A DNA stretch of 64,000 bases from Escherichia coli. GTDB lineage: Bacteria; Pseudomonadota; Gammaproteobacteria; Enterobacterales; Enterobacteriaceae. This document shows, piece by piece, positions 1 through 47,209 of the stretch. The translations under genes were made by a program, and so were the position numbers. The stretch is taken from NCBI RefSeq assembly GCF_011045215.1, contig NZ_CP049201.1. One strand, written 5' to 3'. The stretch's first letter is position 1, and every line of letters begins with the position of its first letter. The notes under the pieces are model-generated. The model was not told the origin of the DNA, searched no databases, and worked only from the letters and a program-made list of their open reading frames with translations.

Positions 1-1
1 T

Positions 2-478
2 TACAATTTACTCCTGTTGATTGATGTCGGTGAATCTGGTCAACACAAACAATCTTTTGCCACCATAGCCACACAAGTTTTTGAAAAAGGCTATGATTTC
101 AGGCACGGTATTGCACTGGCTATTCCTGTGCTCATTACTGAATTATTAACCCGGTTAATGTGGACATGTAAACAATGGTTATATCATAAAAAGCCCTTGA
201 CTGAGTGTGTACCTGTAGAAAATGATCCGGAGTTAAGAAGAATGTTACTGATTGCTCATGGAACGCTCTGTATGATTGATGCTGGTGATGCAGCATTTAG
301 ATCCGGTGGTAATTTGATGACGTTTCTGCTGAGAACTAATATGGTCGGCTGGGTTCGGTTTGGTATGCTTGCGTTAAAAGAAGTTCATGGGTTATACAAC
401 ACAGGTCATATTGATGTTGATTCGGTTGATAAATATCTGGATACTGAATTAGAAAGATTATCATCTCATCTATACTAA
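2..478 (+). CDS. Hypothetical protein, C-terminal fragment; reading frame is open to the left window edge, so the 5' end is missing
   Basis: ORF track 17..478 begins at a TTG, but the same frame has no stop back to position 2. No recognisable motif. Lies inside the selC island. Confidence 0.4.
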   Translation, partial: YNLLLLIDVGESGQHKQSFATIATQVFEKGYDFRHGIALAIPVLITELLTRLMWTCKQWLYHKKPLTECVPVENDPELRRMLLIAHGTLCMIDAGDAAFRSGGNLMTFLLRTNMVGWVRFGMLALKEVHGLYNTGHIDVDSVDKYLDTELERLSSHLY

Positions 479-703
479 TCCCTCTGACAGGCCATTCTGC
501 TATAAAGACATGGGATGAATGATAATGATTGTCGGCGCTTTTTTCACGAAGGAAAGGGTAGTGACAGCCAGGTTTACAATGTACCGCTGCATATGTGGCG
601 GTTGACTATATCGGCTTCACGGTTTTCAGGATAAAGCATTAATCAGTAGTCCTGTATTAAGTATATCTGCCTCAGGCGAACATACTGTATTTTATAAATT
701 TTT

Positions 704-2308
704 ATGAAAAACAACCTTCTTTTTATATTCCTGTCGCGGATTAATAATGATAAAAGTATTGTGTTATCTGTGATTGTTTTTACGCTTGCTAATATGATTG
801 TATCATCAGGTGCACATCTGATTTATCGGGTATTATTCTTTACCCTGACTCTCCTTATTATCAAGAAGATAAAGTTATTTACGCTGCGTTTGATTCTTGC
901 TTTTCCGTTCACGTTACTGACTGCTGCAGATATCAGTATCAGCCTGTATTCATGGTGTACATTTGGCACAACATTTAATGATGGTTTTGCAATCAGTATC
1001 CTTCAGACAGATCCTGATGAAGTAATAAGAATGTTCAGGATGTATGTTGTTTATGTTATCGCATTTATTATCCTCTTTTTATTGTTCTTCTGTTCAGCAA
1101 TAAATAAAACGTCCTCATTGCCATCGGAAAAGGTCACGGTAATTACATTTTTATTGTTAATTACAGTAACGTTATATTCTTCCTTTCAGTTTGCGTTGAA
1201 GAAACAGTATCAAATAAATGAAGTTGATCCTTACATAGTCGCTTCCCGGTTTGCCACATATACCCCTTTCTTTAATCTGAACTATTTTGCACTGGCCGCA
1301 AAGGAGCATCAGAGATTAATGACGATTGCTGATACCATACCTCACTACGAGCTGATGATTACAGACAATAATATTGATGAATTTGTACTGATCATCGGTG
1401 AATCAGCAAGGACTGATAACATGTCCATTTACGGGTATTCGCGCCCAACCACACCAGAACTTCAGAAACAGAAATCACGGCTGAAACTGTTCACTCAGGC
1501 AATCAGTGGCGCACCTTACACTGCGCTGGCTGTTCCTCTGGCGTTGTCTGCCGATAGTGTACTGCATCATGATATCCGTAATTACCCTGATAACATTATC
1601 AACATGGCGAATCAGGCAGGGTTCGATACCTGGTGGCTCAGTGCGCAGTCCGCTTTCCGGCAGAACGGAACGGCTGTGGCCAGTATCGCCATACGGGCCA
1701 GAAACAGAATTTATGTCAGAGGCTATGATGAGTTACTGCTCCCACATCTGGCTGAAGCACTGAACAGTAATCCGGGAAGAAGGAAACTGATTGTTCTGCA
1801 TCTGACGGGCAGCCATGAACCAGTCTGCAGTAACTGGCCCAGAGATAAAGCCGTGTTTAAACCACTGGATACAGAAGAAGTCTGCTACGATAATTCCATT
1901 CATTATACCGACAGTTTGTTGGGGCGGGTTTTCGCCATGCTGGAAACGCGTCAGGCATCAGTCATGTATTTTTCAGATCACGGTCTGGAGTATGACCCGA
2001 CAAAAGAACATGCCTATCTTCATGGCGGAATAAAACCCAGCCAGCAGGCTTATCATGTTCCGATGTTTATCTGGTACAGCCCGGCTCTGGGAGAGCATGT
2101 CGATCGCCAGACGGTGAACAGCGTTTTTTCTACTGCGTATAATGATTATCTGATTAATGTATGGATGGGCGTAACCAGACCAGCTCAACCGAAAACGCCG
2201 GAGGAGGTGATCACCCGCTGGCAGGGGAAATCAAATGTTATTGATGCAAACCATAACGTGTTTGACTACAACGTATTACGAAAGAACTTTAATGAACCCC
2301 TGGAATAA
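704..2308 (+). CDS. Phosphoethanolamine transferase family protein (N-terminal multi-pass membrane region plus sulfatase-like catalytic domain; EptA/EptB/OpgE-like)
   Basis: 534 aa. Hydrophobic N-terminal third (e.g. LIIKKIKLFTLRLILAFPFTLL, VVYVIAFIILFLLFF). Periplasmic domain has the LIIGESARTDNMSIYGY motif typical of PEtN transferases, a candidate Thr nucleophile region (ISGAPYTALAVP) and a C-terminal HxxG-type region. Visibly AT-rich compared with the flanking core genes. Confidence 0.7.
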   Translation: MKNNLLFIFLSRINNDKSIVLSVIVFTLANMIVSSGAHLIYRVLFFTLTLLIIKKIKLFTLRLILAFPFTLLTAADISISLYSWCTFGTTFNDGFAISILQTDPDEVIRMFRMYVVYVIAFIILFLLFFCSAINKTSSLPSEKVTVITFLLLITVTLYSSFQFALKKQYQINEVDPYIVASRFATYTPFFNLNYFALAAKEHQRLMTIADTIPHYELMITDNNIDEFVLIIGESARTDNMSIYGYSRPTTPELQKQKSRLKLFTQAISGAPYTALAVPLALSADSVLHHDIRNYPDNIINMANQAGFDTWWLSAQSAFRQNGTAVASIAIRARNRIYVRGYDELLLPHLAEALNSNPGRRKLIVLHLTGSHEPVCSNWPRDKAVFKPLDTEEVCYDNSIHYTDSLLGRVFAMLETRQASVMYFSDHGLEYDPTKEHAYLHGGIKPSQQAYHVPMFIWYSPALGEHVDRQTVNSVFSTAYNDYLINVWMGVTRPAQPKTPEEVITRWQGKSNVIDANHNVFDYNVLRKNFNEPLE

Positions 2309-2364
2309 TTCGTTAAAGTAATTTACGACTCTATTCTTTTTTAAAGGAAACTTTCAGAAAATAA

Positions 2365-2385
2365 CCCCAGGGCGATAACCTGGGG
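2365..2385. terminator. Hairpin between the convergent PEtN-transferase and TPR-like genes; possible bidirectional terminator
   Basis: ccccagggcgataacctgggg: a 6-bp GC stem (cccagg/cctggg) flanked by A/T-rich sequence. Confidence 0.35.
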
Positions 2386-2454
2386 AAGGGGGTTTAGTGT
2401 GTTATTACTGGTGGATAAATTATTACTTGTTTGAAAAATACACTAATGCAATAT

Positions 2455-3498
2455 CTACTGATGCTGGATGCTTGAGTGTTTCATTCCTGCCGCTGAAAAC
2501 GGCAATATCCAGGGCCAGACATATTCACCGTTAATATTTCTGCATTTCTGTACAATTTCCTCAGAAAGTGTCTCATCAATTCTTTCCCACAACAACTTCT
2601 GCTGTCTTAAAATGCTTTCGCATATTTCGAAATCATCTTCCTGCATCAGCATTTCGGCGCATTTAATGATTTCTGCCCGTTCATGCAGCACAGAGGAATG
2701 GTTATAGAGCCAGTTTACAAACAGCAATGCTTCCGGATATTGTCCCCATAATGGTGAGTATGTTGCATAATAATCTTCGGCAGTATCCGGCCCGGCAGAA
2801 TAGTTATGCCATACAGCAAGAGGAAATGGATGCAGATTTCCGCACAGTATTTCTGCGATGTAAGTATTTGCCGTAAAGCCACGACGAAATGCAGTTGCAG
2901 CTTTTTCCAGTTCCCCATTAAGAAAATGCAGAAGGCCGAGTTCATACCAGTAAGGTGAAAATTCATCAGCGTACTCATTCAGTACACGGAAAGCTCGCTC
3001 ATGATCACCTGTTCGTAACAGTTCTGAACCCAACAACCAGCGGGTACCCTGATTATCTTCAGGATTGTATGCCAGTATTTTCTCAATGAGCATGATGGCA
3101 TCCTGATGACGTTGTAAATGTACATTTGCCAGGATTGCTGCATAAAGCGCGCGCAGATAAGGCCGGTTTTCGGGATGCATCCAGATGATTTCACCACTGA
3201 AACTTTCCGGGATGAGACGATTACCTGCCGCCAGTCCTTTAAGAGCGGCGTTCAGTGCCTTACGCGGGGCATTCTGCTCCAGAAATGCATATGCCAGATG
3301 AGCGTGTATATCAATAAAGTCAGGCTCCTGTTGAGCAAGGCGTCTGAGTTTGTTGATGTAACTCGCCTCACTGATTTCACCAGTATCGTATGTATCAAGC
3401 AGTTTTTCAAACTCCCCCGGTAATGGGCAAAACCAGGTATCCGGAAATACGAAACGCCCTTGGTTATCGTTTACTTTAAAGCGTAATTTGTCGTTCAT
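2455..3498 (-). CDS. Hypothetical protein with TPR-like helical repeats, function unknown
   Basis: 347-aa ORF with a clean start and an AT-rich upstream region. Ala/Leu-rich helical repeat character (e.g. ALKGLAAGNRL, YAAILANVHLQRHQDAIMLIEKILAYNPEDNQG, ELGLLHFLNGELEKAATAFRRG). No catalytic motif recognised. Confidence 0.55.
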   Translation of the reverse strand: MNDKLRFKVNDNQGRFVFPDTWFCPLPGEFEKLLDTYDTGEISEASYINKLRRLAQQEPDFIDIHAHLAYAFLEQNAPRKALNAALKGLAAGNRLIPESFSGEIIWMHPENRPYLRALYAAILANVHLQRHQDAIMLIEKILAYNPEDNQGTRWLLGSELLRTGDHERAFRVLNEYADEFSPYWYELGLLHFLNGELEKAATAFRRGFTANTYIAEILCGNLHPFPLAVWHNYSAGPDTAEDYYATYSPLWGQYPEALLFVNWLYNHSSVLHERAEIIKCAEMLMQEDDFEICESILRQQKLLWERIDETLSEEIVQKCRNINGEYVWPWILPFSAAGMKHSSIQHQ

Positions 3499-3850
3499 TT
3501 TCTGAGCCTGTAAAACGGATTGGACACAATCTGAAAAGCATAAAAGTCGTGATGTTGTGTATCAAGTCTTGTTTTTGTCCGGGATGAATGTTGTTTACAA
3601 TATCATCGACAGTGTTTTTATATGAGAATGAAAATTTATCTTTATCTGCATTCCAATGTATTGTGAATTGTCAGCTGAAACAGCATATTAATCGATTTTT
3701 TGATAATGGTGCTGAAATAACGACAGGATGATGATTGAAACTACTGGTATCAAAATTGTTAGCGGTCCATAATGGTGTGATGTTTTGAGATTGTTTATAG
3801 ATGCAATATTAAATATTTTGTCAAAAAACAAAAAATACCTAAAAATAAAG

Positions 3851-3888
3851 CATAAAAACAAAATTCCTCCGGACCAGGAGGCCGGAGG
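3851..3888 (-). terminator. Rho-independent terminator downstream of the integrase gene
   Basis: Stem cctccgg...ccggagg (3866-3888) followed on the minus strand by a T-rich run. Confidence 0.4.
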
Positions 3889-3928
3889 AGAATTTGTGGA
3901 TTGAGAGAAAATATCAGGACAAGTGCTC

Positions 3929-5119
3929 TTAACCCTGACTCTCTTGCTTAGAAAGCGAATCAATATAATCTGCGTACCACTGCATCATTTCACGGCGACC
4001 ATCGAGATACTGGGCATGATTATAGGTACCCCTGATGGCGTTTTTATCCACATGAGCTAACTGCATTTCAATCCAGGCGGAATTAAAGCCCTGTTCGTGC
4101 AGAATGGTACTCATGGTGTGTCTGAAACCGTGCCCTGTGAGTCTTCCCTTATATCCCAGTAATTCAATGACTTGGTTAATGCTTTCCTTACTAATTGGCT
4201 TGCGAGGATCGTTCCTACCGATAAAGACCAGAGGATGATGTTTTGTGATGGGTTCAAGTTGCTTAAATAGGGCAATGACCTGCTCAGAGAGCGGCACAAT
4301 ATGAGGTCGCTTCATCTTCATTACTTTTGCCGGAATCTCCCATAATTTTGTCTCAAAATCGATATCCTCCCAGCGTGCGAAACGTAATTCTTGTGTTCGT
4401 ACACCAGTTAACATAATGATCTGAGTAGCTGTCTTAGTGATGATACTTCCGGTATAACCCGCCAGATCGTTGAGGAAGTGGGGAAGTTCATTAGCAGTAA
4501 GAAAGGGAAAATGTACTTTTTTCGGTGTAGCTAAAGCACAGGCAAGATCGGGAGCAGGGTTGTAGTCTGCCCGACCAGTAACAATTGCATAGCGGAACAC
4601 TTCACCACAGCGCTGGCGGACTTTGCGCATTTTCTCCAGAGCTCCACGTTTTTCCATTTTACGCAGTGCTTCCAGTAACTCCATTGGTTTGATTTCGGCG
4701 ATAGGGCGTTTGCCAATGTAGGGAAAAATGTCTTTTTCAAAGGTATCAATGATTTCATCACGATAGCGTAATGACCACCGATCGGCTTTTGACTGATGCC
4801 ATTCGCGAGCAATGGCCTCGAACGTATTTTTCAAACTCATTTGTTGCGCGATTTTTTCTTCTTTTTTTGCCACCCCTGGATCGCCTCCAGCAGCGAGGAT
4901 TTTTCTGGCTTCGCTGCGTTTTTCACGAGCGTCGGCTAGCGTTACATCGGGGTATACGCCAATAGAAAGCATCTTTTCTTTACCAGCAAAGCGGTACTTC
5001 ATACGCCAGTATTTAGAACCATTAGTGTTAATCAGTAGATACATACCGCCGCCATCAGCAAGTTTATAGGGCTTTTCTTTTGGTTTTGCGGTTTTCACTT
5101 TAATATCGGTTAATGCCAT
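3929..5119 (-). CDS. int: P4-family tyrosine integrase (site-specific recombinase)
   Basis: 396 aa. C-terminal catalytic region with the conserved R...HxxR...Y residues (LTGHGFRHTMSTIL, IRGTYNHAQY). Same orientation as, and directly downstream of, the tRNA 3' end, the canonical layout for tRNA-targeting islands. Confidence 0.9.
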   Translation of the reverse strand: MALTDIKVKTAKPKEKPYKLADGGGMYLLINTNGSKYWRMKYRFAGKEKMLSIGVYPDVTLADAREKRSEARKILAAGGDPGVAKKEEKIAQQMSLKNTFEAIAREWHQSKADRWSLRYRDEIIDTFEKDIFPYIGKRPIAEIKPMELLEALRKMEKRGALEKMRKVRQRCGEVFRYAIVTGRADYNPAPDLACALATPKKVHFPFLTANELPHFLNDLAGYTGSIITKTATQIIMLTGVRTQELRFARWEDIDFETKLWEIPAKVMKMKRPHIVPLSEQVIALFKQLEPITKHHPLVFIGRNDPRKPISKESINQVIELLGYKGRLTGHGFRHTMSTILHEQGFNSAWIEMQLAHVDKNAIRGTYNHAQYLDGRREMMQWYADYIDSLSKQESQG

Positions 5120-5417
5120 GACATCCTCCGGCTTTTAATGAATTCATGTTCCTGAGGGGGACTTCTGCCAGTAATTAACCTGATACCCCCAATGCACCCC
5201 TTGTATAACAAAGATGTTGTTGAAAGCCGTTGTTATATATCATATTTTACCAATTATGGGGGTGCTGATATTTCAATAGGAAATAATACCCCCTAAAGTA
5301 CCCCCAAAAGCAACTTGATACGGGGTGAAGTCGGTTGACTTCTGGATACAAAGGAATCCTGATATACAAGGGATTAGAAGGGGTGGTTGACATCGGGGGA
5401 GTTCAGAAGATGTTAAT

Positions 5418-5512
5418 TGGCGGAAGATCACAGGAGTCGAACCTGCCCGGGACCGCTGGCGGCCCCAACTGGATTTGAAGTCCAGCCGCCTCACCGGAGA
5501 CGACGATCTTCC
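5418..5512 (-). tRNA. selC: tRNA-Sec (selenocysteine tRNA)
   Basis: 95-nt reverse-complement match to the E. coli selC sequence (GGAAGATCGTCGTCTCCGGTGAGGCGGCTGGACTTCAAATCCAGTTGGGGCCGCCAGCGGTCCCGGGCAGGTTCGACTCCTGTGATCTTCCGCCA) as I remember it; the 3' CCA is at 5418-5420. Confidence 0.95.
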
Positions 5513-5804
5513 GCGCCTCGATTGCTACATGGAGGCGGGGCGCATTATAGCTACTTCCTTGAGTTTCTACATCCCCCAGATCAGTTTTTTCCGCCTAATA
5601 CACGCAGCGTATTATCACGAAAGCATTATAGTTCATATAAAACCCATATTTTACAATGATATATGAGCGGAATTAACGCTACCACGATCACATAAAACAA
5701 GAATCATAAATTAATAACCAGATATCGGAATATTCGCTCTCACAGGGATGGTTTACAAAATGCGTTATCGGTCTCAGCACCCCTATAGCATCAAGGAAAA
5801 GCAG

Positions 5805-32706: not shown

Positions 32707-34471
<1,765 letters not shown>

Positions 34472-34822
34472 AGTAAATAGCTGACTTATGGATGTGCTGG
34501 GGATTCTATGTATTTAGCTGTGGCTTTACCATTACTTTTCCCGTTTTTGACTTAAATAGCAATTTACCCGCCAATTCTTGCTGAACATCTATACTTTTTT
34601 TGTATTTTTATGCGATTCATTGATTTCTGCTGTACGTGCAGGAAGGAATCGCAGAGCAACAGTGAAAGAATATGGTTGCTAATGATTATATTTGATTGAT
34701 TTCTTTATTGAAAATCAACAATGTGCTTAAAAATCATTCGGGTCGGATTGCCGCGAAAGAAGTGATACACTAGCGCGTCAATATCAGTGCGGTATCAGTA
34801 TTCAGGTAGCTGTTGAGCCTGG

Positions 34823-34834
34823 GGCGGTAGCGTG
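34823..34834 (+). promoter_or_regulatory. ops element (RfaH-dependent antitermination signal) in the JUMPstart region upstream of waaQ
   Basis: GGCGGTAGCGTG in the 5' leader of the waaQ operon. Confidence 0.7.
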
Positions 34835-34883
34835 CTTTTTCTGCTTCACCTTAATCGGATAATCTCAACAAAAAGAGTTACTT

Positions 34884-35942
34884 GTGGATAAGCCATTTCG
34901 AAGAATTTTGCTCATTAAGATGCGTTTTCATGGGGATATGTTATTAACTACTCCCGTCATTAGTTCGCTGAAAAAAAATTACCCTGACGCAAAAATCGAT
35001 GTGCTGCTTTATCAGGACACCATCCCGATCCTGTCTGAAAATCCAGAGATTAACGCGCTCTACGGCATAAAAAATAAAAAAGCAAAAGCCTCAGAAAAAA
35101 TTGCCAACTTTTTTCATCTCATCAAGGTATTACGTGCCAATAAGTATGACCTTATCGTCAATCTTACCGATCAATGGATGGTTGCTATACTGGTTCGCTT
35201 ATTAAATGCCCGTGTGAAAATTTCCCAGGATTATCATCATCGGCAGTCTGCTTTTTGGCGTAAAAGTTTCACCCATTTGGTGCCGTTGCAGGGTGGAAAT
35301 GTGGTGGAAAGTAACTTATCCGTGCTGACACCATTGGGACTTGATTCGTTGGTGAAGCAGACAACCATGAGTTACCCGCCTGCAAGCTGGAAACGTATGC
35401 GTCGCGAACTTGATCACGCTGGTGTTGGACAAAATTATGTGGTTATCCAACCTACGGCGCGGCAAATCTTCAAATGCTGGGACAACGCCAAGTTTTCCGC
35501 TGTGATTGATGCCTTACATGCTCGTGGTTATGAAGTCGTTCTGACGTCCGGCCCAGATAAAGACGATCTGGCCTGCGTCAATGAAATTGCGCAGGGATGC
35601 CAGACGCCACCAGTAACGGCGCTGGCTGGAAAGGTGACCTTCCCGGAACTTGGTGCGTTAATCGATCATGCGCAGCTGTTTATTGGCGTTGATTCCGCAC
35701 CGGCGCATATTGCCGCTGCAGTTAATACGCCGCTGATATCGCTGTTTGGTGCGACAGACCATATTTTCTGGCGTCCCTGGTCAAATAACATGATTCAATT
35801 CTGGGCGGGAGATTACCGGGAAATGCCAACGCGCGATCAGCGTGACCGAAATGAGATGTATCTTTCGGTTATTCCGGCGGCAGATGTCTTTGCTGCTGTC
35901 GATAAATTACTGCCCTCCTCCACGACAGGTACGTCGTTATGA
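34884..35942 (+). CDS. waaQ: LPS heptosyltransferase III
   Basis: GT9 heptosyltransferase; first gene of the long waa operon. The start is uncertain (GTG at 34884 or a downstream codon). Confidence 0.85.
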   Translation: MDKPFRRILLIKMRFHGDMLLTTPVISSLKKNYPDAKIDVLLYQDTIPILSENPEINALYGIKNKKAKASEKIANFFHLIKVLRANKYDLIVNLTDQWMVAILVRLLNARVKISQDYHHRQSAFWRKSFTHLVPLQGGNVVESNLSVLTPLGLDSLVKQTTMSYPPASWKRMRRELDHAGVGQNYVVIQPTARQIFKCWDNAKFSAVIDALHARGYEVVLTSGPDKDDLACVNEIAQGCQTPPVTALAGKVTFPELGALIDHAQLFIGVDSAPAHIAAAVNTPLISLFGATDHIFWRPWSNNMIQFWAGDYREMPTRDQRDRNEMYLSVIPAADVFAAVDKLLPSSTTGTSL

Positions 35943-37063
35943 TCGTTGCTTTTTGTTTATATAAATATTTTCCCTTTGGCGGTTTGCAGCGCGATTTTAT
36001 GCGTATTGCTCAGACAGTCGCCGCCCGAGGTCATCATGTTCGGGTTTATACCCAGTCGTGGGAAGGCGAATGCCCTGATGTATTTGAACTGATCAAAGTG
36101 CCGGTTAAATCGCATACCAATCACGGGCGCAATGCGGAGTATTTTGCCTGGGTGCAAAAACATTTACGCGAACATCCCGTCGATAAAGTCGTTGGATTCA
36201 ACAAAATGCCGGGGCTGGACGTTTATTATGCCGCTGATGTTTGTTATGCCGAGAAAGTAGCGCAGGAAAAAGGCTTTTTCTATCGCCTGACGTCACGTTA
36301 TCGCCATTATGCCGCCTTTGAGCGGGCAACCTTCGAACAGGGCAAGCCGACACAGCTGCTAATGCTGACAGATAAGCAAATCGCCGATTTCCAGAAACAT
36401 TATCAGACTGAAGCGGAGCGTTTTCATATTCTGCCACCGGGGATTTATCCTGATCGTAAATATAGCCAGCAGCCAGCTAATAGCCGTGAAATCTTCCGTA
36501 AGAAGAATGGAATAACCGAACAACAATATTTATTGTTGCAGGTCGGTTCAGACTTCACGCGTAAAGGTGTCGATCGTTCCATTGAAGCACTTGCTTCGTT
36601 ACCGGATTCGCTGCGCCACAACACATTGCTATATGTTGTTGGGCAGGATAAACCGCGAAAATTTGAGGCGCTGGCAGAAAAACGCGGCGTGCGCAGTAAT
36701 GTTCACTTCTTCTCGGGGCGCAACGATGTCTCGGAATTAATGGCGGCGGCGGATTTATTACTGCATCCTGCCTACCAGGAAGCGGCGGGAATTGTGCTGC
36801 TGGAAGCGATTACTGCAGGATTACCGGTACTAACAACAGCCGTTTGTGGCTATGCGCATTATATTGTCGAGGCCAATTGCGGCGAGGCTATTGTTGAGCC
36901 ATTCCGCCAGGAAACATTGAATGAGATTTTACGCAAAGCGTTAACGCAATCTTCATTGCGCCAGGCCTGGTCGGAAAATGCGCGACATTATGCTGATACA
37001 CAAGATTTATACAGTCTGCCAGAGAAAGCGGCGGATATCATAACGGGTGGTCTGGATGGTTGA
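35939..37063 (+). CDS. waaG: LPS core glucosyltransferase I (GT4)
   Basis: 374 aa; overlaps the waaQ stop by 4 nt (ATGA). Confidence 0.9.
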
Positions 37064-37853
37064 ACTTAAAGAGCCGTTTGCCACGTTATGGCGCGGTAAA
37101 GATCCTTTTGAGGAAGTTAAAACCTTGCAGGGTGAGGTATTTCGTGAACTGGAAACTCGCCGTACTCTGCGCTTTGAAATGGCGGGCAAAAGCTATTTTC
37201 TCAAATGGCATCGCGGCACGACCCTGAAAGAGATAATCAAAAATTTACTCTCATTGCGGATGCCAGTATTAGGCGCAGACCGCGAATGGAATGCGATTCA
37301 TCGACTGCGGGATGTCGGCGTTGATACTATGTATGGGGTGGCATTTGGCGAAAAAGGCATGAATCCGCTGACCAGAACTTCATTTATTATTACCGAAGAT
37401 CTGACACCAACCATAAGTCTGGAAGATTACTGTGCTGACTGGGCGACTAACCCTCCAGATGTTCGCGTAAAGCGTATGCTTATTAAGCGTGTCGCGACGA
37501 TGGTGCGCGATATGCATGCTGCGGGCATTAACCACCGTGACTGTTATATCTGTCATTTCCTGCTGCACTTGCCTTTTTCCGGTAAGGAAGAGGAGTTAAA
37601 AATTTCGGTAATTGACCTGCACCGGGCGCAGCTTCGCACGCGCGTTCCACGTCGTTGGCGCGATAAAGATCTTATTGGGCTTTATTTTTCTTCGATGAAT
37701 ATCGGCCTGACTCAGCGGGATATCTGGCGGTTTATGAAAGTGTATTTTGCCGCCCCGCTTAAAGACATTCTCAAGCAGGAACAAGGACTGCTGTCGCAAG
37801 CAGAAGCAAAAGCCACAAAAATCAGGGAAAGAACGATTCGAAAATCGTTGTAA
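37056..37853 (+). CDS. waaP: LPS core heptose(I) kinase
   Basis: 265 aa from [14 protein letters not shown]; kinase-like region [17 protein letters not shown]. Confidence 0.85.
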
Positions 37854-37895
37854 CCCGTAACTTATTTTTGCCAAAATTTTGGATACAGAATAAAT

Positions 37896-38903
37896 ATGTC
37901 TCAACTCAATGATAGTGACATCATCCTTTTTGAGTATAATTTTCATTATCAAAATATAAGATCTAAAAATACTCTTGATATAGCATTTGGTATTGACAGA
38001 AATTTTCTTTTTGGATGTGGTGTAGCCATCGCATCTATTCTATTAAACAATAGAGAAATCTCTTGTGAATTTCATGTTTTCACAGATTATATCAGTGATA
38101 AAGACAAGTTATATTTTTCCGATTTAGCAAAACAATATAATTCAAGAATTAATATTTATGTTATCAATTGTGATAAGCTGAAGTCATTACCAAGCACGAA
38201 AAACTGGACTTACGCTACATATTTTCGATTTATAATTGCAGACTATTTCTATAATAAACATGAAAAAATACTATATCTTGATGCAGATATTGCTTGCAAG
38301 GGTAGTATTAAAGAACTCTTAGATTATCAATTCTCTACTAATGAAATTGCCGCAGTTGTAGCTGAAAGAGATGTTGAATGGTGGCAGAATCGAGCCTCGG
38401 TATTAACTACACCACAATTAGCTTCTGGATATTTCAATGCTGGTTTTTTACTGATAAATATTGATGAGTGGAATCTTAATAACATTTCGTCAAAAGCTAT
38501 TGAAATGTTGCGTGATCCAGATTGGGTAAGTAAAATCACCCACCTTGATCAAGATGTACTGAATGTATTATTGAATGGTAAAGTGAAGTTTATTTCTGGG
38601 AAATATAATACCCGATATAGTATTAACTATGAATTAAAAGACAAAGTTGATAATCCAGTCAATGATGACACTGTGTTTATACACTATGTGGGACCTACAA
38701 AACCCTGGCATGAATGGGCTGACTATCCGGTGTCACGTAGTTTTTTGATCGCCAAAGCATCTTCTCCGTGGTGTAAAGAAGATTTACTTAAACCTGTAAA
38801 TAGCAATCAGTATCGGTATTGTGCAAAACATAAATTTAAACAAAAGCATTATATGGCGGGCATTTTTAATTATTTAAAGTATTATAAAGAAAAATGCTTT
38901 TAA
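37896..38903 (+). CDS. waaI: GT8-family LPS outer-core glycosyltransferase (position matches waaI of the R3 core type)
   Basis: 335 aa; GT8 hallmarks (LYLDADI DxD motif, HYxGxxKPW). Symbol assigned from gene order only. AT-rich. Confidence 0.5.
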   Translation: MSQLNDSDIILFEYNFHYQNIRSKNTLDIAFGIDRNFLFGCGVAIASILLNNREISCEFHVFTDYISDKDKLYFSDLAKQYNSRINIYVINCDKLKSLPSTKNWTYATYFRFIIADYFYNKHEKILYLDADIACKGSIKELLDYQFSTNEIAAVVAERDVEWWQNRASVLTTPQLASGYFNAGFLLINIDEWNLNNISSKAIEMLRDPDWVSKITHLDQDVLNVLLNGKVKFISGKYNTRYSINYELKDKVDNPVNDDTVFIHYVGPTKPWHEWADYPVSRSFLIAKASSPWCKEDLLKPVNSNQYRYCAKHKFKQKHYMAGIFNYLKYYKEKCF

Positions 38904-38928
38904 AGATTTAAGGTTAAAATAATTCAAT

Positions 38929-39636
38929 ATGATATATAATAAAACGATAAATGGGTTGAAAGTTTTCATAAAAGATAATGATCCCTTTTATGAGCAAGTT
39001 CTGAATGACTTTTTAACTTGCAGGGTTAAAACATTAAAAGTTTTTCGTTCTATTGATGATACTAAAGTTATTCTTATTGACACTGCTCGTGGACCTCTTG
39101 TACTTAAAGTTTATGCGCCAAAGCATAAAATGATCGAACGTTTCTTAAAATCTTGCATAAAAAAAGATTATTATGAAAATTTAATTTATCAAACCGATCG
39201 GGTACGTGGTGAAGGCATTCAATCAATTAATGACTATTTTTTGCTTGCTGAACGTAAAACATTAAATTTCGCGCATTATTATATTATGCTCATTGAGTAT
39301 ATTGAAGGTGTCGGGTTAAATGAGTATTTGGAAATTTCTGAAGAACTGAAGGATCAATTATCAGAATCGATAAAAGAGTTGCATCAGCATGGAATGGTGT
39401 CTGGCGATCCTCATAAAGGAAATTTTATAGTATCCGAAAAAGGTTTAAGACTAATTGACCTTTCAGGTAAAAAAACAACCGCAGTTTTAAAAGCAAAAGA
39501 TCGCATTGATCTTGAACGGCACTATAATATAAAAAATGAATTGAAAGACTTTGGCTATACATATCTTATATTCAAAAAGAAAATTAAAAAAGCAATCAGG
39601 GATGTAAAAGTCAAACTAGGTTTGAAGAGCAAATAA
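38929..39636 (+). CDS. waaY: LPS core heptose(II) kinase
   Basis: 235 aa, WaaP/WaaY-like small kinase, placed between the two GT8 genes. AT-rich. Confidence 0.6.
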   Translation: MIYNKTINGLKVFIKDNDPFYEQVLNDFLTCRVKTLKVFRSIDDTKVILIDTARGPLVLKVYAPKHKMIERFLKSCIKKDYYENLIYQTDRVRGEGIQSINDYFLLAERKTLNFAHYYIMLIEYIEGVGLNEYLEISEELKDQLSESIKELHQHGMVSGDPHKGNFIVSEKGLRLIDLSGKKTTAVLKAKDRIDLERHYNIKNELKDFGYTYLIFKKKIKKAIRDVKVKLGLKSK

Positions 39637-39660
39637 TGATTATGATGAAGGGTAATTAAA

Positions 39661-40674
39661 TTGGATTTTAAACATCTTACTCAATTTAAAGATATAATTG
39701 AACTGGACAAGCGCCCCGTTAAACTTGATGAACGGGAAACGTTTAATGTCTCATGGGGTATTGATGAGAACTACCAGGTTGGGGCTGCGATTTCAATTGC
39801 TTCAATTCTTGAAAATAATAAACAAAACAAATTTACCTTTCACATAATCGCTGATTACTTAGACAAAGATTATATTGAATTATTATCACAATTAGCAACG
39901 AAGTATCAAACAGTAATTAAATTATATCATATTGATTCTGAGCCATTGAAGACGCTACCTCAATCAAATATCTGGCCAGTATCTATTTATTATCGTTTGC
40001 TTTCATTTGACTATTTTTCTGCGCGATTGGATTCATTATTATATCTTGATGCTGATATCGTCTGTAAGGGTTCATTGAACGAGTTAATAGCATTAGAGTT
40101 TAAAGATGAATATGGGGCTGTGGTAATTGATGTAGATGCTATGCAAAGTAAAAGCGCTGAGCGTTTAGGTAATGAGGATTTTAACGGTAGCTATTTTAAC
40201 TCTGGTGTAATGTATATTAATTTACGGGAATGGTTAAAACAAAGACTAACGGAGAAATTCTTTGATCTATTATCAGATGAGTCAATTATCAAAAAATTAA
40301 AATATCCGGATCAAGATATTTTAAACTTAATGTTTCTACATCATGCTAAAATATTACCGAGAAAATATAACTGTATTTATACTATAAAGTCAGAATTTGA
40401 AGAAAAAAATAGTGAATATTACACCCGGTTTATTAATGATGAAACTGTCTTCATACATTATACTGGTGTAACTAAGCCATGGCATGATTGGGCGAACTAC
40501 GCATCTGCAGATTATTTTCGTAATATTTATAATATATCACCATGGAGAAATATACCTTATAAAAAAGCTGTTAAAAAACATGAGTACAAAGAAAAATATA
40601 AACACTTGCTTTACCAGAAAAAATTTCTCGATGGTTTTTTTACAGCAATTAAATATAATTTTATGAAAGGTTAA
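39661..40674 (+). CDS. waaJ: GT8-family LPS outer-core glycosyltransferase (position matches waaJ of the R3 type)
   Basis: 337 aa; GT8 hallmarks (LYLDADI, HYTGVTKPW). Appears to use a TTG start at 39661 because in-frame stops lie immediately upstream. Symbol from gene order only. Confidence 0.5.
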   Translation: MDFKHLTQFKDIIELDKRPVKLDERETFNVSWGIDENYQVGAAISIASILENNKQNKFTFHIIADYLDKDYIELLSQLATKYQTVIKLYHIDSEPLKTLPQSNIWPVSIYYRLLSFDYFSARLDSLLYLDADIVCKGSLNELIALEFKDEYGAVVIDVDAMQSKSAERLGNEDFNGSYFNSGVMYINLREWLKQRLTEKFFDLLSDESIIKKLKYPDQDILNLMFLHHAKILPRKYNCIYTIKSEFEEKNSEYYTRFINDETVFIHYTGVTKPWHDWANYASADYFRNIYNISPWRNIPYKKAVKKHEYKEKYKHLLYQKKFLDGFFTAIKYNFMKG

Positions 40675-40682
40675 CATTCGAG

Positions 40683-41825
40683 ATGGTTGATAAAATAATA
40701 TTTACAGTTACTCCTATTTTTTCAATTCCTCCTCGCGGAGCGGCCGCTGTTGAAACGTGGATGTATCAGGTCGCTCAGCGTACCAATTTCCCAAATCGTA
40801 TTGTTTGTATCAAGAATCCAGGATACTCAAATTACACCTTTGTTAATGATAATTGTAGTATTCATAGGGTTGGATTCAGTCGCATATATAAGCGGTTATT
40901 TCAAAAATGGACAAGACTTGATCCTCTTCCATATTCACAGAGAATATTGAATATTGCACATGATTTTCCTATAACGAAAGAAAGTGTTATTGTAGTTCAT
41001 AATAGTATGAAGCTATACACTCAAATTCGTAAGCGAGCTCCTCAGGCAAGAGTGGTTATACATATGCATAATGCATTTGAACCAAAATTGCTTGAGCAAA
41101 ATGTTAAAATGATAGTGCCTAGTTTATACTTGAAAAAGTATTACCAATCTTATTTAGCAAATGCAGATATTGAGATTGTACCAAATGGAATTGATTTAGA
41201 AACCTATCAATCTACTTTTCAGCCGATCACTAGAAGCGAACTTAATATCTCCCCTGAAGAGAAAATTATTTTTTATGCTGGGCGTATCGTCCCTGACAAA
41301 GGCATATTGCTGTTGATGCAATCATTCGAAAAATTGGCCGCTGCTCACAAAAATTTAAAATTAGTTGTGATTGGTGATTATACAGAAATGAGTAAAAGTG
41401 ACAAAGGTGCATATCAACGCAATGTCAGGGAAATTGCAAAACGTTTGAAGGATCGTTGCATTATGTTAGGAAGCATACCGCCTGAAAAGATGCATTGTTA
41501 TTACCCACTGGCAGATTTAGTCGTCATTCCTTCCCAGTTCCAGGAACCATTTTGCATGGTGGCAATTGAAGCTATGGGGGCTGGTAAGCCTGTTTTAGTG
41601 AGTACGCGTGGGGGGATGACGGAATTTGTCAAAGAAAATACTACGGGATTCCATTTAAAAGAACCTATGACTGCAGACTCCATAAGCAGCGATATTTTAA
41701 AAACGTTAGCGAATCCTGAATTAACAGCAGTTGCAAAGCAAGGTCAGGATTTTGTGTTTGATCACTACAGTTGGGATGGCGTAACTCAAAGATTCGAAGA
41801 GGTTATTCATAATTGGTTTGAATAA
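40683..41825 (+). CDS. waaD: GT4-family glycosyltransferase, last gene of the waaQ operon (position matches waaD of the R3 type)
   Basis: 380 aa; GT4 EX7E-type region (IPSQFQEPFCMVAIEAMGAGKPVLVSTRGGMTEFV). Followed by a hairpin with T-run (aaaaaggccgcattatgcagccttttttatttttt). Confidence 0.45.
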   Translation: MVDKIIFTVTPIFSIPPRGAAAVETWMYQVAQRTNFPNRIVCIKNPGYSNYTFVNDNCSIHRVGFSRIYKRLFQKWTRLDPLPYSQRILNIAHDFPITKESVIVVHNSMKLYTQIRKRAPQARVVIHMHNAFEPKLLEQNVKMIVPSLYLKKYYQSYLANADIEIVPNGIDLETYQSTFQPITRSELNISPEEKIIFYAGRIVPDKGILLLMQSFEKLAAAHKNLKLVVIGDYTEMSKSDKGAYQRNVREIAKRLKDRCIMLGSIPPEKMHCYYPLADLVVIPSQFQEPFCMVAIEAMGAGKPVLVSTRGGMTEFVKENTTGFHLKEPMTADSISSDILKTLANPELTAVAKQGQDFVFDHYSWDGVTQRFEEVIHNWFE

Positions 41826-41860
41826 ATAAAAAGGCCGCATTATGCAGCCTTTTTTATTTT

Positions 41861-43069
41861 TTACTTGTTTTTCATCGCTAATAATAAGCCGGCGTAAACG
41901 CCTAATAAATTTGGTTCAATTTGTTCTACGTTTCCACGGATAACAAAATAACCTATAAAAGATAGTAAGATTATATAATATGCATTATATGGTGAGCGGT
42001 ATATATTCTGGACGCCATTTTTTATACACTCTTTCAATATTGCACAGTATAGCATCATAAGACTTACCAGCCCTAATAAACCAGTGCCAAACCAGATGAA
42101 TAGCGCAAAATTATGTGGCCCTATTGATTGTCTAAAGGTCCATTCTGGATAATCAACGACACGTTTATTATAGACATCTTTATATGCAAAGTTACCGTAA
42201 CCATAACCAATAACAGGATTTTCTAATATTAGATCGAGTGCGCTGCCTTGAGTACCATTTGCATAGCGATAAGAACTATTAGTTTGTTGAAGTTTATACG
42301 TTAGCTTTGCGGTCATCTCCTTATGTGTGAAAATAACCGACAATGCAATGATGGAAACCATTACTCCTACTAATAGTAACTTCCATTGTTTAAACATCAG
42401 AATCCATATTAATCCAATGACTAACACGGAAAGCCAGGCCCCTCTGGATAAAGTTCCTAATATCAGAAAAATAAAAATAAAGCTTAGAACCACAAAAGAA
42501 ATGCGGTATTTTGCTGATTTAATAAGCCAGAGATTTAACAATGCAGGGAATAAAAAGACCATCGAGTCAGAAATGCTACGGTGTCTATAATCTGCGAATG
42601 GCATTATCCCTTGTTGATAGTCCTTATAATAGGCAATCAATTCAGAAAAACAGCGTAAGCTCAACGCACTAATAAATGAGAAGAAAACGATTTTTTCGAT
42701 ATCTTCTCTTTTTTCGTCTCTCAATATGACCGGTATTGCTATTGTGCATAGTAAAGTATTCTCAATGATAGCTTTGAAAATTTCCTTCATGCTAGCACCT
42801 GCATCTGGAGATTGAAGAAGTGACAGCAATGCAGCAATAGTTAATATGGCAACACTACCAAAAAGAAATGTTTTAAATAGTGATAGATAGTGTTTTGGCC
42901 GTTTGCAGAGATAGACGATTGTCGTTATTGTCATAAGAATAACAATAAGATGTTTATACCTTGTAATCCCACCCAAAAAATAGGTGGTAATAAATAAGAA
43001 TACGAGAGCTCTGTTCCAGTACGCTATCCAGTTTTTTTTCTCGAGAGAGAAAAATAATGTTGAGGTCAT
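41861..43069 (-). CDS. waaL: O-antigen ligase
   Basis: 402 aa, very hydrophobic polytopic protein; position immediately downstream of waaC in the hldD-waaF-waaC-waaL operon. AT-rich. Confidence 0.7.
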   Translation of the reverse strand: MTSTLFFSLEKKNWIAYWNRALVFLFITTYFLGGITRYKHLIVILMTITTIVYLCKRPKHYLSLFKTFLFGSVAILTIAALLSLLQSPDAGASMKEIFKAIIENTLLCTIAIPVILRDEKREDIEKIVFFSFISALSLRCFSELIAYYKDYQQGIMPFADYRHRSISDSMVFLFPALLNLWLIKSAKYRISFVVLSFIFIFLILGTLSRGAWLSVLVIGLIWILMFKQWKLLLVGVMVSIIALSVIFTHKEMTAKLTYKLQQTNSSYRYANGTQGSALDLILENPVIGYGYGNFAYKDVYNKRVVDYPEWTFRQSIGPHNFALFIWFGTGLLGLVSLMMLYCAILKECIKNGVQNIYRSPYNAYYIILLSFIGYFVIRGNVEQIEPNLLGVYAGLLLAMKNK

Positions 43070-46050: not shown

Positions 46051-46351
46051 AACTGTAACCTTCGAATTATGGAGTCAGAGACAATCTCAGACATGAATGT
46101 CTGTAATCATACCATCACATCCGAATCCCTTCAGCCCTTTACATAGAGATGCAAGAATGCTAATTGCAACAAACTAGTTTGGGTTTTAGCTAGTCCTTCA
46201 TGGCGGATGTTGGTTTTGCACGTGAATAGTGCTTTAGTATCAATATTCCGATGTATGGTAAATAACGGAAGCATTTGAATGGATAATATACAGTATACAT
46301 TCTGTTAATATTTATGATATAATTCTTTTTATATTAATGGTCTTATTAGTA

Positions 46352-47209
46352 ATGAAATCATCCACCACAATTATCACTGCATATTTTGACATTGGTAGAG
46401 GGGATTGGACTGCTAATAAAGGGTTCCGTGAAAAACTAGCTCGTTCAGTTGATGTTTATTTTAGTTACTTTGAGCGTCTGGCCGTACTTGAAAATGAGAT
46501 GATTATTTTCACTTCTCCCGATTTGAAACCAAGGGTTGAAGCGATTCGCAACGGAAAACCAACAACGGTTATCGCTATCGATATAAAAAAGAAATTTAGA
46601 CATATCAGAAGTCGTATCGAAAAAATTCAAAAAGATGAGTCGTTTACAAATAGACTTGAGCCTCGACAATTAAAAAACCCAGAGTACTGGTCACCAGAGT
46701 ATGTTTTGGTATGTAACCTTAAGGCCTATTTTGTAAATAAAGCTATCAACATGGGCTTAGTGAAAACGCCTCTTGTTGCGTGGATAGATTTTGGCTATTG
46801 CCGTAAGCCAAATGTGACTCGAGGATTGAAAATTTGGGATTTCCCATTTGATGAAAATAAGATGCATCTTTTCACTATAAAAAAAGGGCTTACTGTTACA
46901 TCTCAACAACAGGCTTTTGATTTCATGATTGGCAATCATGTATATATTATTGGGGGCGCAATTGTTGGTTCACAGCATAAATGGAAAGAATTCTATAAAT
47001 TAGTTCTGGAAAGTCAAAAAATAACACTAAACAATAACATTGTGGACGATGACCAGGGCATTTTTGTCATGTGCTATTACAAACGTTCCGATCTCTTCAA
47101 CCTAAACTATCTGGGGAGAGGAAAATGGTTCGATTTGTTTCGCTGCTTCAGGAGTAACACTTTAGGGGCAAAAATGCAGGCGCTGAGAATTTTCCTTTCA
47201 AGAAAATAG
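46352..47209 (+). CDS. htrL: HtrL/YibB-family protein
   Basis: 285 aa from MKSSTTIITAYFDIGRGDWTANKGFREKLARSVDVYFSYFERL; AT-rich; synteny. Confidence 0.8.
   Translation: MKSSTTIITAYFDIGRGDWTANKGFREKLARSVDVYFSYFERLAVLENEMIIFTSPDLKPRVEAIRNGKPTTVIAIDIKKKFRHIRSRIEKIQKDESFTNRLEPRQLKNPEYWSPEYVLVCNLKAYFVNKAINMGLVKTPLVAWIDFGYCRKPNVTRGLKIWDFPFDENKMHLFTIKKGLTVTSQQQAFDFMIGNHVYIIGGAIVGSQHKWKEFYKLVLESQKITLNNNIVDDDQGIFVMCYYKRSDLFNLNYLGRGKWFDLFRCFRSNTLGAKMQALRIFLSRK

Follow-up and report, generated by a model that had tools for sequence, protein, structure and literature searches.

A yhbX-like phosphoethanolamine-transferase-family gene beside the P4-type integrase of a selC island in Escherichia coli

The window analysed here is a 64,000-nucleotide stretch of Escherichia coli contig NZ_CP049201.1 (assembly GCF_011045215.1), and only the right-hand end of the island described below lies inside it. 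Reading from the left edge, the 3′ part of a Bunzi BnzB gene is followed by a yhbX-like gene of the phosphoethanolamine (PEtN)-transferase family, a gene for a tetratricopeptide-repeat (TPR) protein, a tyrosine integrase gene and tRNA-Sec (Table 1). The core genes yicJ and yicI are found beyond the integrase and tRNA-Sec. The BnzB fragment matches positions 346-502 of the 504 of PADLOC profile PDLC03834 (E 6.4e-65). A contig look-up with the exact transferase protein, meant to extend the view past the left edge, gave no record. The integrase and its selC counterparts in H10407 and 14EC029 are 99.2-99.7% identical, and the arrangement at tRNA-Sec recurs in annotated genomes. The tRNA gene, the P4-type tyrosine integrase, a GC content of 38-45% compared to 52%, and a patchy presence among strains identify a horizontally acquired island, as the preliminary description of this DNA had proposed.

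Table 1. Features at the island end of the window (positions are those of the window).
Feature	Position	Strand	Basis or remark
Bunzi BnzB gene, C-terminal 158 codons	2..478	+	ORF runs past left window edge
Diverged 5′ flank of transferase gene	510..703	+	Alignment with H10407, W2-5 and MAG alleles; promoter scan
yhbX-like phosphoethanolamine-transferase-family gene	704..2308	+	534 aa; ORF, Pfam Sulfatase, exact database match
N-terminal membrane domain, five predicted TM helices	746..1207	+	Residues 15-168; hydropathy, AF2
Periplasmic sulfatase-fold catalytic domain	1379..2305	+	Residues 226-534; alignments to NmEptA, EcEptC
Catalytic-domain residues	E233 1400-1402; T273 (nucleophile) 1520-1522; H371 1814-1816; D425/H426 1976-1981; H440 2021-2023	+	
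Terminator-like GC-rich hairpin with T-run	2365..2385	-	Between convergent transferase and TPR genes
Tetratricopeptide-repeat protein gene, 347 aa	2455..3498	-	ORF; weak TPR-family matches
P4-type tyrosine integrase	3929..5119	-	NF007246, E 1.4e-93
tRNA-Sec (selC)	5418..5512	-	Integration site and right-hand island boundary; ARAGORN

The observation of the transferase gene is confirmed. Its open reading frame begins with ATG, and the predicted protein is an exact match to WP_164475339.1 / QIF11459.1; the protein is thus already in NCBI, and the gene is already known and annotated. The gene had been described as AT-rich, which agrees with its GC content of 42.6% (GC3 44.9%), compared to 52.0% across window positions 6000-37000 and a GC3 of 56.8% for the adjacent core gene yicJ. 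The ATG at 704 is kept in all alleles and aligns with the start of YhbX. A 557-residue form is annotated in other strains, but the corresponding upstream extension is not conserved, lacks an ATG and contains stops within the window. Therefore the 534-residue start was preferred. The 5′ flank is a remnant full of indels, and the same region in other islands holds a small ORF of 65 aa directly upstream of the transferase gene. Together with the first ~200 nt of the gene it forms a mosaic with 73-87% identity to other alleles, compared to 94-100% for the remainder. Neither a sigma-70 consensus site nor a Shine-Dalgarno sequence was recognised in this flank by promoter scan and inspection of the sequence.

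The Pfam Sulfatase domain (PF00884) spans residues 227-474 with an E value of 5.9e-50, which places the family call far beyond chance; EptA_B_N matches residues 56-161 weakly. The GESARTDNMS motif occupies residues 232-241 (nt 1397-1426). Hydropathy analysis detects five hydrophobic segments within residues 17-165, and the AF2 model has long helices at residues 15-31, 36-54, 59-87, 104-133 and 142-168, with pLDDT mostly >88 in the helical N-terminal region. This membrane domain is followed by helices at 176-184 and 192-209, which are periplasmic and bridging. The AlphaFold model as a whole has a pLDDT of 93.7 and a pTM of 0.91. The top Foldseek matches are EcEptC (6a82), full-length NmEptA (5fgn) and MCR-1 (9nww), and the PDB matches obtained by sequence are the same three enzymes. 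Their catalytic domains are matched with a probability of 1.00 and a TM score (target) of 0.71-0.77, and the alignments to full-length NmEptA and MCR-1 extend over 508-551 columns, membrane domain included.

All six catalytic and metal-binding residues of EptA/MCR-type enzymes are present, as seen in the alignments and by residue check: E233, T273, H371, D425, H426 and H440 align with NmEptA E240, T280, H383, D452, H453 and H465, and the six positions are invariant columns in our family alignment (A1). The catalytic domain also contains a pair of cysteines, C375 and C394, that is invariant in the clade defined below. The protein thus combines the sulfatase-fold domain, the five-helix membrane domain, and the catalytic Thr and Zn ligands of the EptA-type superfamily. 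The preliminary description had seen a 534-residue protein with a hydrophobic N-terminus and a sulfatase-like domain carrying the GESARTDNMS motif, and had placed it in the PEtN-transferase superfamily; both statements hold, the second on the Pfam match, the fold and a best NCBIfam match that is the generic P_eth_NH2_trans domain. An alignment had also been suggested as a check for a degenerate active site, and here the nucleophile and the metal ligands proved intact.

Assignment to a named subfamily was not obtained. The protein scores 37-72 bits with the NCBIfam models of MCR-1 to MCR-13, whose cut-offs are 1075-1250. The EptA equivalogs give 97.7 bits against 660 (NF008619) and 131 bits against 561 (NF007160), the equivalog NF008593 for EptB, the Kdo II PEtN transferase, gives 107.7 bits against 493, and the EptC/CptA models give 142 bits against 404 (NF007933) and 127.7 bits against 900 (NF012179). 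The CptA subfamily model, at 142 bits, is the best specific NCBIfam match. Identity to the K-12 paralogues is 21-28% for EptA, 22-30% for EptB, 23-25% for EptC and 22-30% for OpgE, the last falling short of orthology-level similarity. Membership in MCR, EptA, EptB or EptC was rejected on the missed cut-offs and the low identity. The protein is 64-66% identical over nearly its full length to K-12 YhbX (b3173, NP_417641.4; 'putative hydrolase/phosphoethanolamine transferase'). It shares a 50% cluster with P0135, and in a midpoint-rooted neighbour-joining tree of 11 sequences, drawn without support values, it groups with YhbX to the exclusion of EptA, EptB, EptC and OpgE. This coherent YhbX clade takes in homologues from Leminorella, Hafnia, Buttiauxella and Proteus. 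The Cys375/Cys394 pair and a short loop from H371 to C394 occur in all seven clade members examined, and the pair is invariant in A1. By sequence, then, the transferase is a YhbX paralogue outside all named subfamilies. It had been said earlier not to be a named mcr allele, and this stands with every MCR model far under its cut-off. Of the subfamilies listed there for a BLASTP or HMM assignment (EptA, EptB, EptC, OpgE and MCR) none fits, and no EptA, EptB, CptA or MCR cut-off is reached.

K-12 YhbX resembles the window protein in its five-TM and sulfatase-fold architecture, its catalytic residues, its Cys pair and its GC content (43.1% compared to 42.6% for the window gene). However, yhbX is present in 5,178 of 5,426 genomes (~95%), where it has a constant location between argG and leuU, whereas the copy in the window is accessory, carried by an island with an integrase and found in ~9% of genomes. 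A close island relative is ETEC_RS21210 (WP_001087989.1) of the H10407 selC tia-leoABC island, 92% identical at the protein level, in an identical tRNA-Sec/int/TPR/transferase module with a 99% identical integrase. It differs in an annotation that is 23 residues longer, in an IS3 element that separates its TPR gene from int, and in the upstream cargo, which is leoABC/tia in H10407 and Bunzi in the window; divergence from H10407 is far greater over the window allele's first ~60 codons than over the rest. EptC/CptA, the HepI-phosphate PEtN transferase (PDB 5zzu/6a82), is the top PDB match by sequence and fold, but it lacks the Cys pair and has a loop insertion: EptA, EptB and EptC carry 13-15 additional residues where the YhbX clade and OpgE have the short loop. 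The lipid A PEtN transferases EptA and MCR-1 match over the full-length structure and conserve the six residues, but miss subfamily identity by far, both in their model cut-offs and in an identity of 21-28%. YjgX, a K-12 pseudogene by intB at leuX, is likewise an integrase-adjacent, convergent PEtN-transferase-family gene of a tRNA island, and it was grouped with yhbX-like island genes in an earlier paper (PMC6174562). It is ~30% identical to the window protein over the catalytic domain and therefore belongs to a different subfamily; the identity with yjgX implied by that 2018 grouping was rejected.

Of 5,426 complete E. coli genomes, 511 (~9%) carry an allele with 90-95% identity to the window gene, and all of these alleles are chromosomal; apart from one 62-kb record, no close plasmid-borne copy was found. 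Carriers include ETEC H10407 and bloodstream isolates bearing pap islands. The full tRNA-Sec/int/TPR/transferase module is present in 69 of the 5,426 genomes, and the transferase and TPR pair also sits in other islands. The TPR gene faces the transferase gene in convergent orientation and accompanies it in a number of islands; the corresponding neighbours in loci L001, L002 and L007-L009 are 91-94% identical. An obligatory functional pairing was rejected: the genes are convergent and the TPR gene is missing from a tRNA-Phe island (L014). Other cargo separates the two in CP057032.1. The contigs of the closest metagenomic relatives, P0136 and P0137, were too short to add any gene context. No close homologue was present in 50,697 phage records, so that a phage-borne origin found no support there, and the PHROG matches are distant families of unknown function. 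A link of the whole YhbX clade to tRNA genes or integrases was also rejected, most of the homologues in other genera being near neither; an integrase lies within 8 kb only for alleles of the E. coli type and for a single locus in Buttiauxella. Integrase-adjacent genes of this type were reported in papers of 2018 and 2022 (PMC6174562, PMC8946752). Rather than unusual cargo, the gene is part of the backbone of tRNA-inserted E. coli islands, where it is widespread and already annotated.

The PEtN-transferase gene is intact, has the fold and catalytic residues of its family, and is under purifying selection. Its dN/dS is 0.16-0.25 against four other alleles; for the catalytic domain taken alone the values are about 0.10-0.14. 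Four of the five alleles inspected are intact; the 14EC029 allele is a pseudogene with an internal stop, and fragmentary alleles were found too. We consider it likely that its product is a YhbX-clade PEtN transferase active in the inner membrane, and that the gene belongs to the conserved, integrase-proximal backbone of the selC P4-integrase island. The gene is real, ordinary and already known, and it is probably functional. By analogy with EptA and MCR-1, the five-helix membrane domain would draw phosphatidylethanolamine from the periplasmic leaflet, and Zn2+ bound by E233, D425 and H426 would activate T273. Attack of T273 on the phosphodiester would then give a PEtN-Thr273 enzyme intermediate and release diacylglycerol, and H371 and H440 may help to transfer PEtN onto the acceptor at the periplasmic face. 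Donor and chemistry, like the acceptor and phenotype considered below, are what we infer for this transferase.

The preliminary description held that the substrate cannot be deduced from the sequence, and indeed the acceptor cannot be read from the window protein. In the literature searched, no acceptor assignment was found for any member of the YhbX clade, and yhbX and yjgX appeared only as strain-construction markers, false-positive screen hits or entries in lists. The earlier suggestion of effects on cationic-peptide resistance or phage adsorption found no direct support. In one reporter screen the yhbX knock-out was among six recovered (with hldE and four others). Five of the six were dismissed for envelope or permeability effects or rpoN reconstitution and the paper does not say which of these applies to yhbX, so we gave this hit no weight. 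Weak hints point to a glycan as acceptor: the C375/C394 pair and short loop are common to the YhbX clade and OpgE, and in Hafnia a homologue with 50% identity is flanked by envC-yibQ on one side and tdh-kbl-hldD-waaF on the other, which places it on the border of the LPS core locus. The two hints diverge in direction, with a single observation behind each. We tentatively put a glycan outside LPS and other than lipid A (periplasmic glucan, ECA, O-antigen or a capsule-type polymer) at the head of the candidates, with the LPS core a possibility ranked closely after it. A protein acceptor is the least probable of all.

OpgE (YbiP), which transfers PEtN to osmoregulated periplasmic glucans (PMC3818809), is the nearest K-12 paralogue of the YhbX clade in the tree. 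Among K-12 EptA, EptB, EptC and OpgE it alone shares the two cysteines and has the short, insertion-free loop, and annotation pipelines have named such island genes 'opgE' (PMC8946752). Nevertheless, a second OpgE acting on the same glucans is unlikely, for despite the common superfamily the identity is just 22-30%, OpgE has no His at the position of H440 and is already a core gene, and the Hafnia synteny favours LPS. The transferase gene lies on a mobile island and its product has the fold and catalytic residues of EptA and MCR, with H440 aligning with their 'YLH' histidine, as would be seen in a mobile lipid A PEtN transferase that lowers polymyxin susceptibility. Lipid A is nonetheless a very improbable acceptor and this reading equally so: the MCR (37-72 bits against 1075-1250) and EptA (98-131 against 561-660) scores and the low identity to K-12 EptA (21-28%) argue against it, as do the missing EptA/EptB loop insertion, the chromosomal location of the alleles (carried by 9% of the complete E. 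coli genomes) and the lack of close plasmid-borne copies other than one 62-kb record.

The gene could also be a silent or decaying passenger, an AT-rich backbone gene silenced by H-NS and idle in its source strain. The unrecognised promoter and Shine-Dalgarno sequence, the scrambled 5′ end beside newly inserted Bunzi cargo, the pseudogenised or fragmentary alleles elsewhere and the pseudogene state of the related K-12 island gene yjgX are compatible with this. The intact reading frame with its full catalytic residue set, the dN/dS of 0.14-0.25 at a dS of 0.13-0.26 and the four intact alleles of five make a silent or inactive transferase improbable. Serotype-converting phages place O-antigen-modifying genes next to int. 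By the same logic, the integrase-proximal transferase may serve a defence island by surface conversion: a phage receptor, either the LPS core or the O-antigen, would be modified and adsorption blocked. Its anti-phage neighbour in the window is Bunzi BnzB, the H10407 island has type I R-M, an AAA ATPase and DUF4365, and Dnd is found in the PK8566 and Leminorella neighbourhoods. On the other hand, neither the transferase nor the TPR protein has a PADLOC match, no close homologue occurs among the 50,697 phage records, most homologues in other genera are distant from integrases and tRNAs, and such islands commonly hold defence cargo whatever their backbone genes. We regard this explanation as doubtful. 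Just as speculative is its extension, in which YhbX-type enzymes would be a twelfth PEtN-transferase class with a new acceptor in E. coli (for example ECA, a position in the LPS core or some other surface glycan), and the island copy, placed close to the integrase, a 'conversion' gene acting on either a phage receptor or a surface epitope recognised by the host, alongside the anti-phage cargo Bunzi, R-M and Dnd. The preferred reading is still that of a functional YhbX-clade backbone gene.

In practical terms, the transferase gene at 704-2308 is not to be taken for a new mcr-type colistin-resistance determinant. Among the PEtN-transferase lineages of E. coli, the YhbX clade, core in ~95% of genomes and with an island copy in ~9%, is alone in having no assigned acceptor. 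Finding this acceptor would complete the map of PEtN decoration of the E. coli envelope, and might explain why the transferase is retained beside the integrase in tRNA-inserted islands.

The transferase gene of the window encodes a protein with a Pfam Sulfatase domain (residues 227-474, E 5.9e-50), a weak Pfam match to EptA_B_N in its N-terminal region and five hydrophobic segments, all located by hydropathy within residues 17-165. Its GC content is 42.6%, compared to 52.0% for window 6000-37000. The preliminary description, which had reported an AT-rich, island-borne ORF for a phosphoethanolamine (PEtN) transferase with a characteristic motif, a membrane region and a sulfatase-like domain, was borne out in each of these elements. 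In other strains the gene is annotated with a 557-aa product. When the 5′ regions are aligned, the ATG at window 704 is kept in all alleles, and the upstream extension contains no ATG and is broken by stops in the window; the 557-aa start was therefore rejected. K-12 YhbX starts at the position equivalent to ATG 704. The 534-aa form is the better gene model, and the identical protein has been deposited with this length as WP_164475339.1 / QIF11459.1 ("phosphoethanolamine transferase [Escherichia coli]").

The window protein is a member of the YhbX clade. Its top NCBIfam match, with 160 bits against a cut-off of 500, was the generic PEtN-transferase domain model, and the protein stayed below the thresholds of all named subfamilies: CptA (142 bits versus 404), EptA (131 versus 561 and 98 versus 660), EptB (108 versus 493) and all MCR families (37-72 versus 1075-1250). 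Membership of EptA, EptB, EptC/CptA, OpgE or MCR was rejected on these thresholds and on the identities given below. A word-indexed protein search returned one cluster at 93% identity (2,955 member sequences), three lesser entries at 92% and 67%, and then a large E. coli/Shigella block of 541-aa proteins at 66%, named YhbX in UniRef. By direct comparison the protein is 64-66% identical to K-12 YhbX versus 22-30% for OpgE, EptC, EptB and EptA of K-12; the K-12 island pseudogene yjgX is only ~30% identical to the window gene. An exhaustive search of 1.84 billion representatives gave only 102 clusters at E<=1e-30, the nearest at 35-45% identity. Scanning of species-representative genomes revealed homologues in Leminorella (61%), Hafnia (50%), Buttiauxella, Kluyvera, Enterobacter and Citrobacter (37-41%), Proteus and Providencia (33-35%), as well as in Orbaceae, Snodgrassella and some Flavobacteriia. 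In a neighbor-joining tree of 11 sequences the window protein clusters with YhbX and its homologues, apart from EptA, EptB and EptC.

Alignment to NmEptA (5fgn/4kav) and EcEptC (5zzu) matched E233, T273, H371, D425, H426 and H440 to NmEptA E240, T280, H383, D452, H453 and H465, numbered as in the published structures. All six residues were confirmed in the window sequence and are invariant in a 12-sequence alignment of the clade. With 71 sequences E233 and H371 still show no variation, and conservation at each of the other four is 90% or higher. The nucleophile and metal ligands, whose loss the preliminary description had named as the mark of an inactive enzyme, are all in place. The AlphaFold2 model based on the 71-sequence alignment (pLDDT 93.7, pTM 0.91) comprises five long N-terminal helices, bridging helices and an alpha/beta domain; Foldseek ranked the EcEptC periplasmic domain first, followed by full-length NmEptA and the MCR-1 cryo-EM structure. 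The dN/dS values of the window allele against four others (Nei-Gojobori) were 0.16-0.25 at dS 0.18-0.26, and the catalytic domain alone gave ~0.10-0.14. The window protein has the fold, membrane domain and catalytic residues of EptA/EptC/OpgE-type transferases and is predicted from sequence and model to work like these enzymes.

Features of the window at the selC island and the LPS core locus
Feature	Position	Strand	Evidence and remarks
BnzB C-terminus, 158 aa (Bunzi anti-phage defence)	2-478	+	PADLOC PDLC03834, E 6.4e-65; open at left window edge
Transferase ORF, ATG start, 534 aa	704..2308	+	ORF listing; includes 'IIGESARTDNMSIYGY'
TPR protein gene, 347 aa, cytoplasmic	2455-3498	-	Convergent with transferase gene; between it and tRNA-Sec
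P4-type tyrosine integrase	3929-5119		NF007246, E 1e-93; between tRNA-Sec and transferase gene
tRNA-Sec (selC)	5418-5512	-	ARAGORN; single tRNA in window
waaA, waaQ, unassigned GT at waaG position, waaP, 3-alpha-galactosyltransferase, waaY, second GT8, GlcNAc transferase (PRK15484), waaL	33194-43069		LPS core locus
htrL/yibB	46337-47209	+	NF008462, E 4e-164; GC ~37%; adjoins waa locus

To the right of selC lie the core genes yicJ, yicI and yicH, 95-99% identical to E. coli. The TPR protein gave only weak family matches (SctY-like TPR, E 2e-7); its gene co-occurs with the transferase gene in several different islands, at 91-94% identity. Blastn of window 1-700 against 5,426 complete E. coli genomes found nothing, so the cargo there is rare or absent in these genomes. 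The window allele is mosaic: from ~nt 1000 on, the tRNA/integrase/TPR/transferase module is 94-100% identical to other alleles, but between nt 690 and 1000 it is 73-87% identical, and the first 60 residues hold ~19-20 of the 35-46 amino-acid differences. Window 510-1000, which spans the 5′ flank and ~300 nt at the start of the gene, is 73-89% identical to other alleles; ~510-703 is a degenerate, indel-ridden remnant where other islands carry a 65-aa ORF upstream of the transferase. This segment looks like a recombination junction adjoining the Bunzi cargo. Simple scans of the bnzB-transferase interval showed no sigma-70 consensus promoter and no plus-strand terminator, and no Shine-Dalgarno sequence precedes the ATG. 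Expression of the transferase is therefore only putative, with read-through from the cargo possible.

Sixty-nine complete E. coli genomes carry the module (window 690-5700) at 95-96% identity. In one of these, ETEC H10407, the selC island has the transferase gene (ETEC_RS21210) immediately downstream of tia-leoCBA. Transferase alleles, mostly at 90-95% nucleotide identity, occur in 511 of the 5,426 genomes, and all 559 places are chromosomal. In other islands an outer-membrane protein, an HTH regulator and further genes precede the transferase-TPR pair, with Dnd nearby in one. In a MAG (locus L014) a 93% allele lies directly beside a different integrase (41% identical) and tRNA-Phe, and the TPR gene is absent. 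The 62,375-bp circular record CP057032.1 (locus L066), annotated as a non-mobilizable plasmid of a cattle-farm E. coli, carries a 91% allele with MFS, EcsC and GGDEF genes between transferase and TPR gene; the record may represent an island that was excised, or an artefact of the assembly. Core yhbX is found in 5,178 of the 5,426 genomes and may be what is left of an old insertion at a tRNA gene that has become fixed. The K-12 copy (locus L003, 5989-8159) has an island-like GC content of 43.1% and lies 458 bp from the tRNA gene leuU, to which it is oriented differently than the island copies are to their tRNA genes.

No acceptor for any YhbX-clade member is assigned in the accessible literature: YhbX has "no function established" and for the Proteus homologue PMI3040 "no function can be hypothesized" (PMC4013655), and the clade does not appear in a 2023 review covering eleven classes of PEA transferases. 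Two weak clues were obtained. The cysteine pair C375/C394 and a short loop are common to the clade and OpgE, its nearest K-12 paralogue in the 11-sequence tree; EptA, EptB and EptC lack the pair and carry a 13-15-residue insertion in place of the short loop. The Hafnia paralvei homologue (50%, locus L041, 7920-9542) has envC-yibQ on one side and tdh-kbl-hldD-waaF on the other. This position at the border of the LPS core locus is the only LPS-related synteny among the homologues examined; the neighbours of the others are unrelated and mutually different. We therefore commit ourselves only to PEtN-type transfer, which would follow the ping-pong mechanism of EptA; the acceptor would face the periplasm and is probably a glycan, but probably not lipid A. 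The gene recurs with defence cargo: the Leminorella grimontii homologue (61%, locus L015, 2695-9584) directly adjoins dndB-dndC-dndD (DNA phosphorothioation), and dndB is also near the E. coli island allele of PK8566 (locus L009). A surface-conversion role tied to the anti-phage cargo of the island seems unlikely.

The waa locus of the window includes an AT-rich stretch at 38-43 kb (GC 31-37%), and htrL/yibB is an ordinary neighbour of this locus. The waa gene order resembles that of the R3 core type; an R3-type core would define the core acceptor for any core-modifying enzyme of the strain.

"Putative opgE" genes have been described beside integrases in pap islands (PMC8946752, 2022). Databases and papers thus already contain the exact protein, the module and its repeated occurrence next to integrases of islands.
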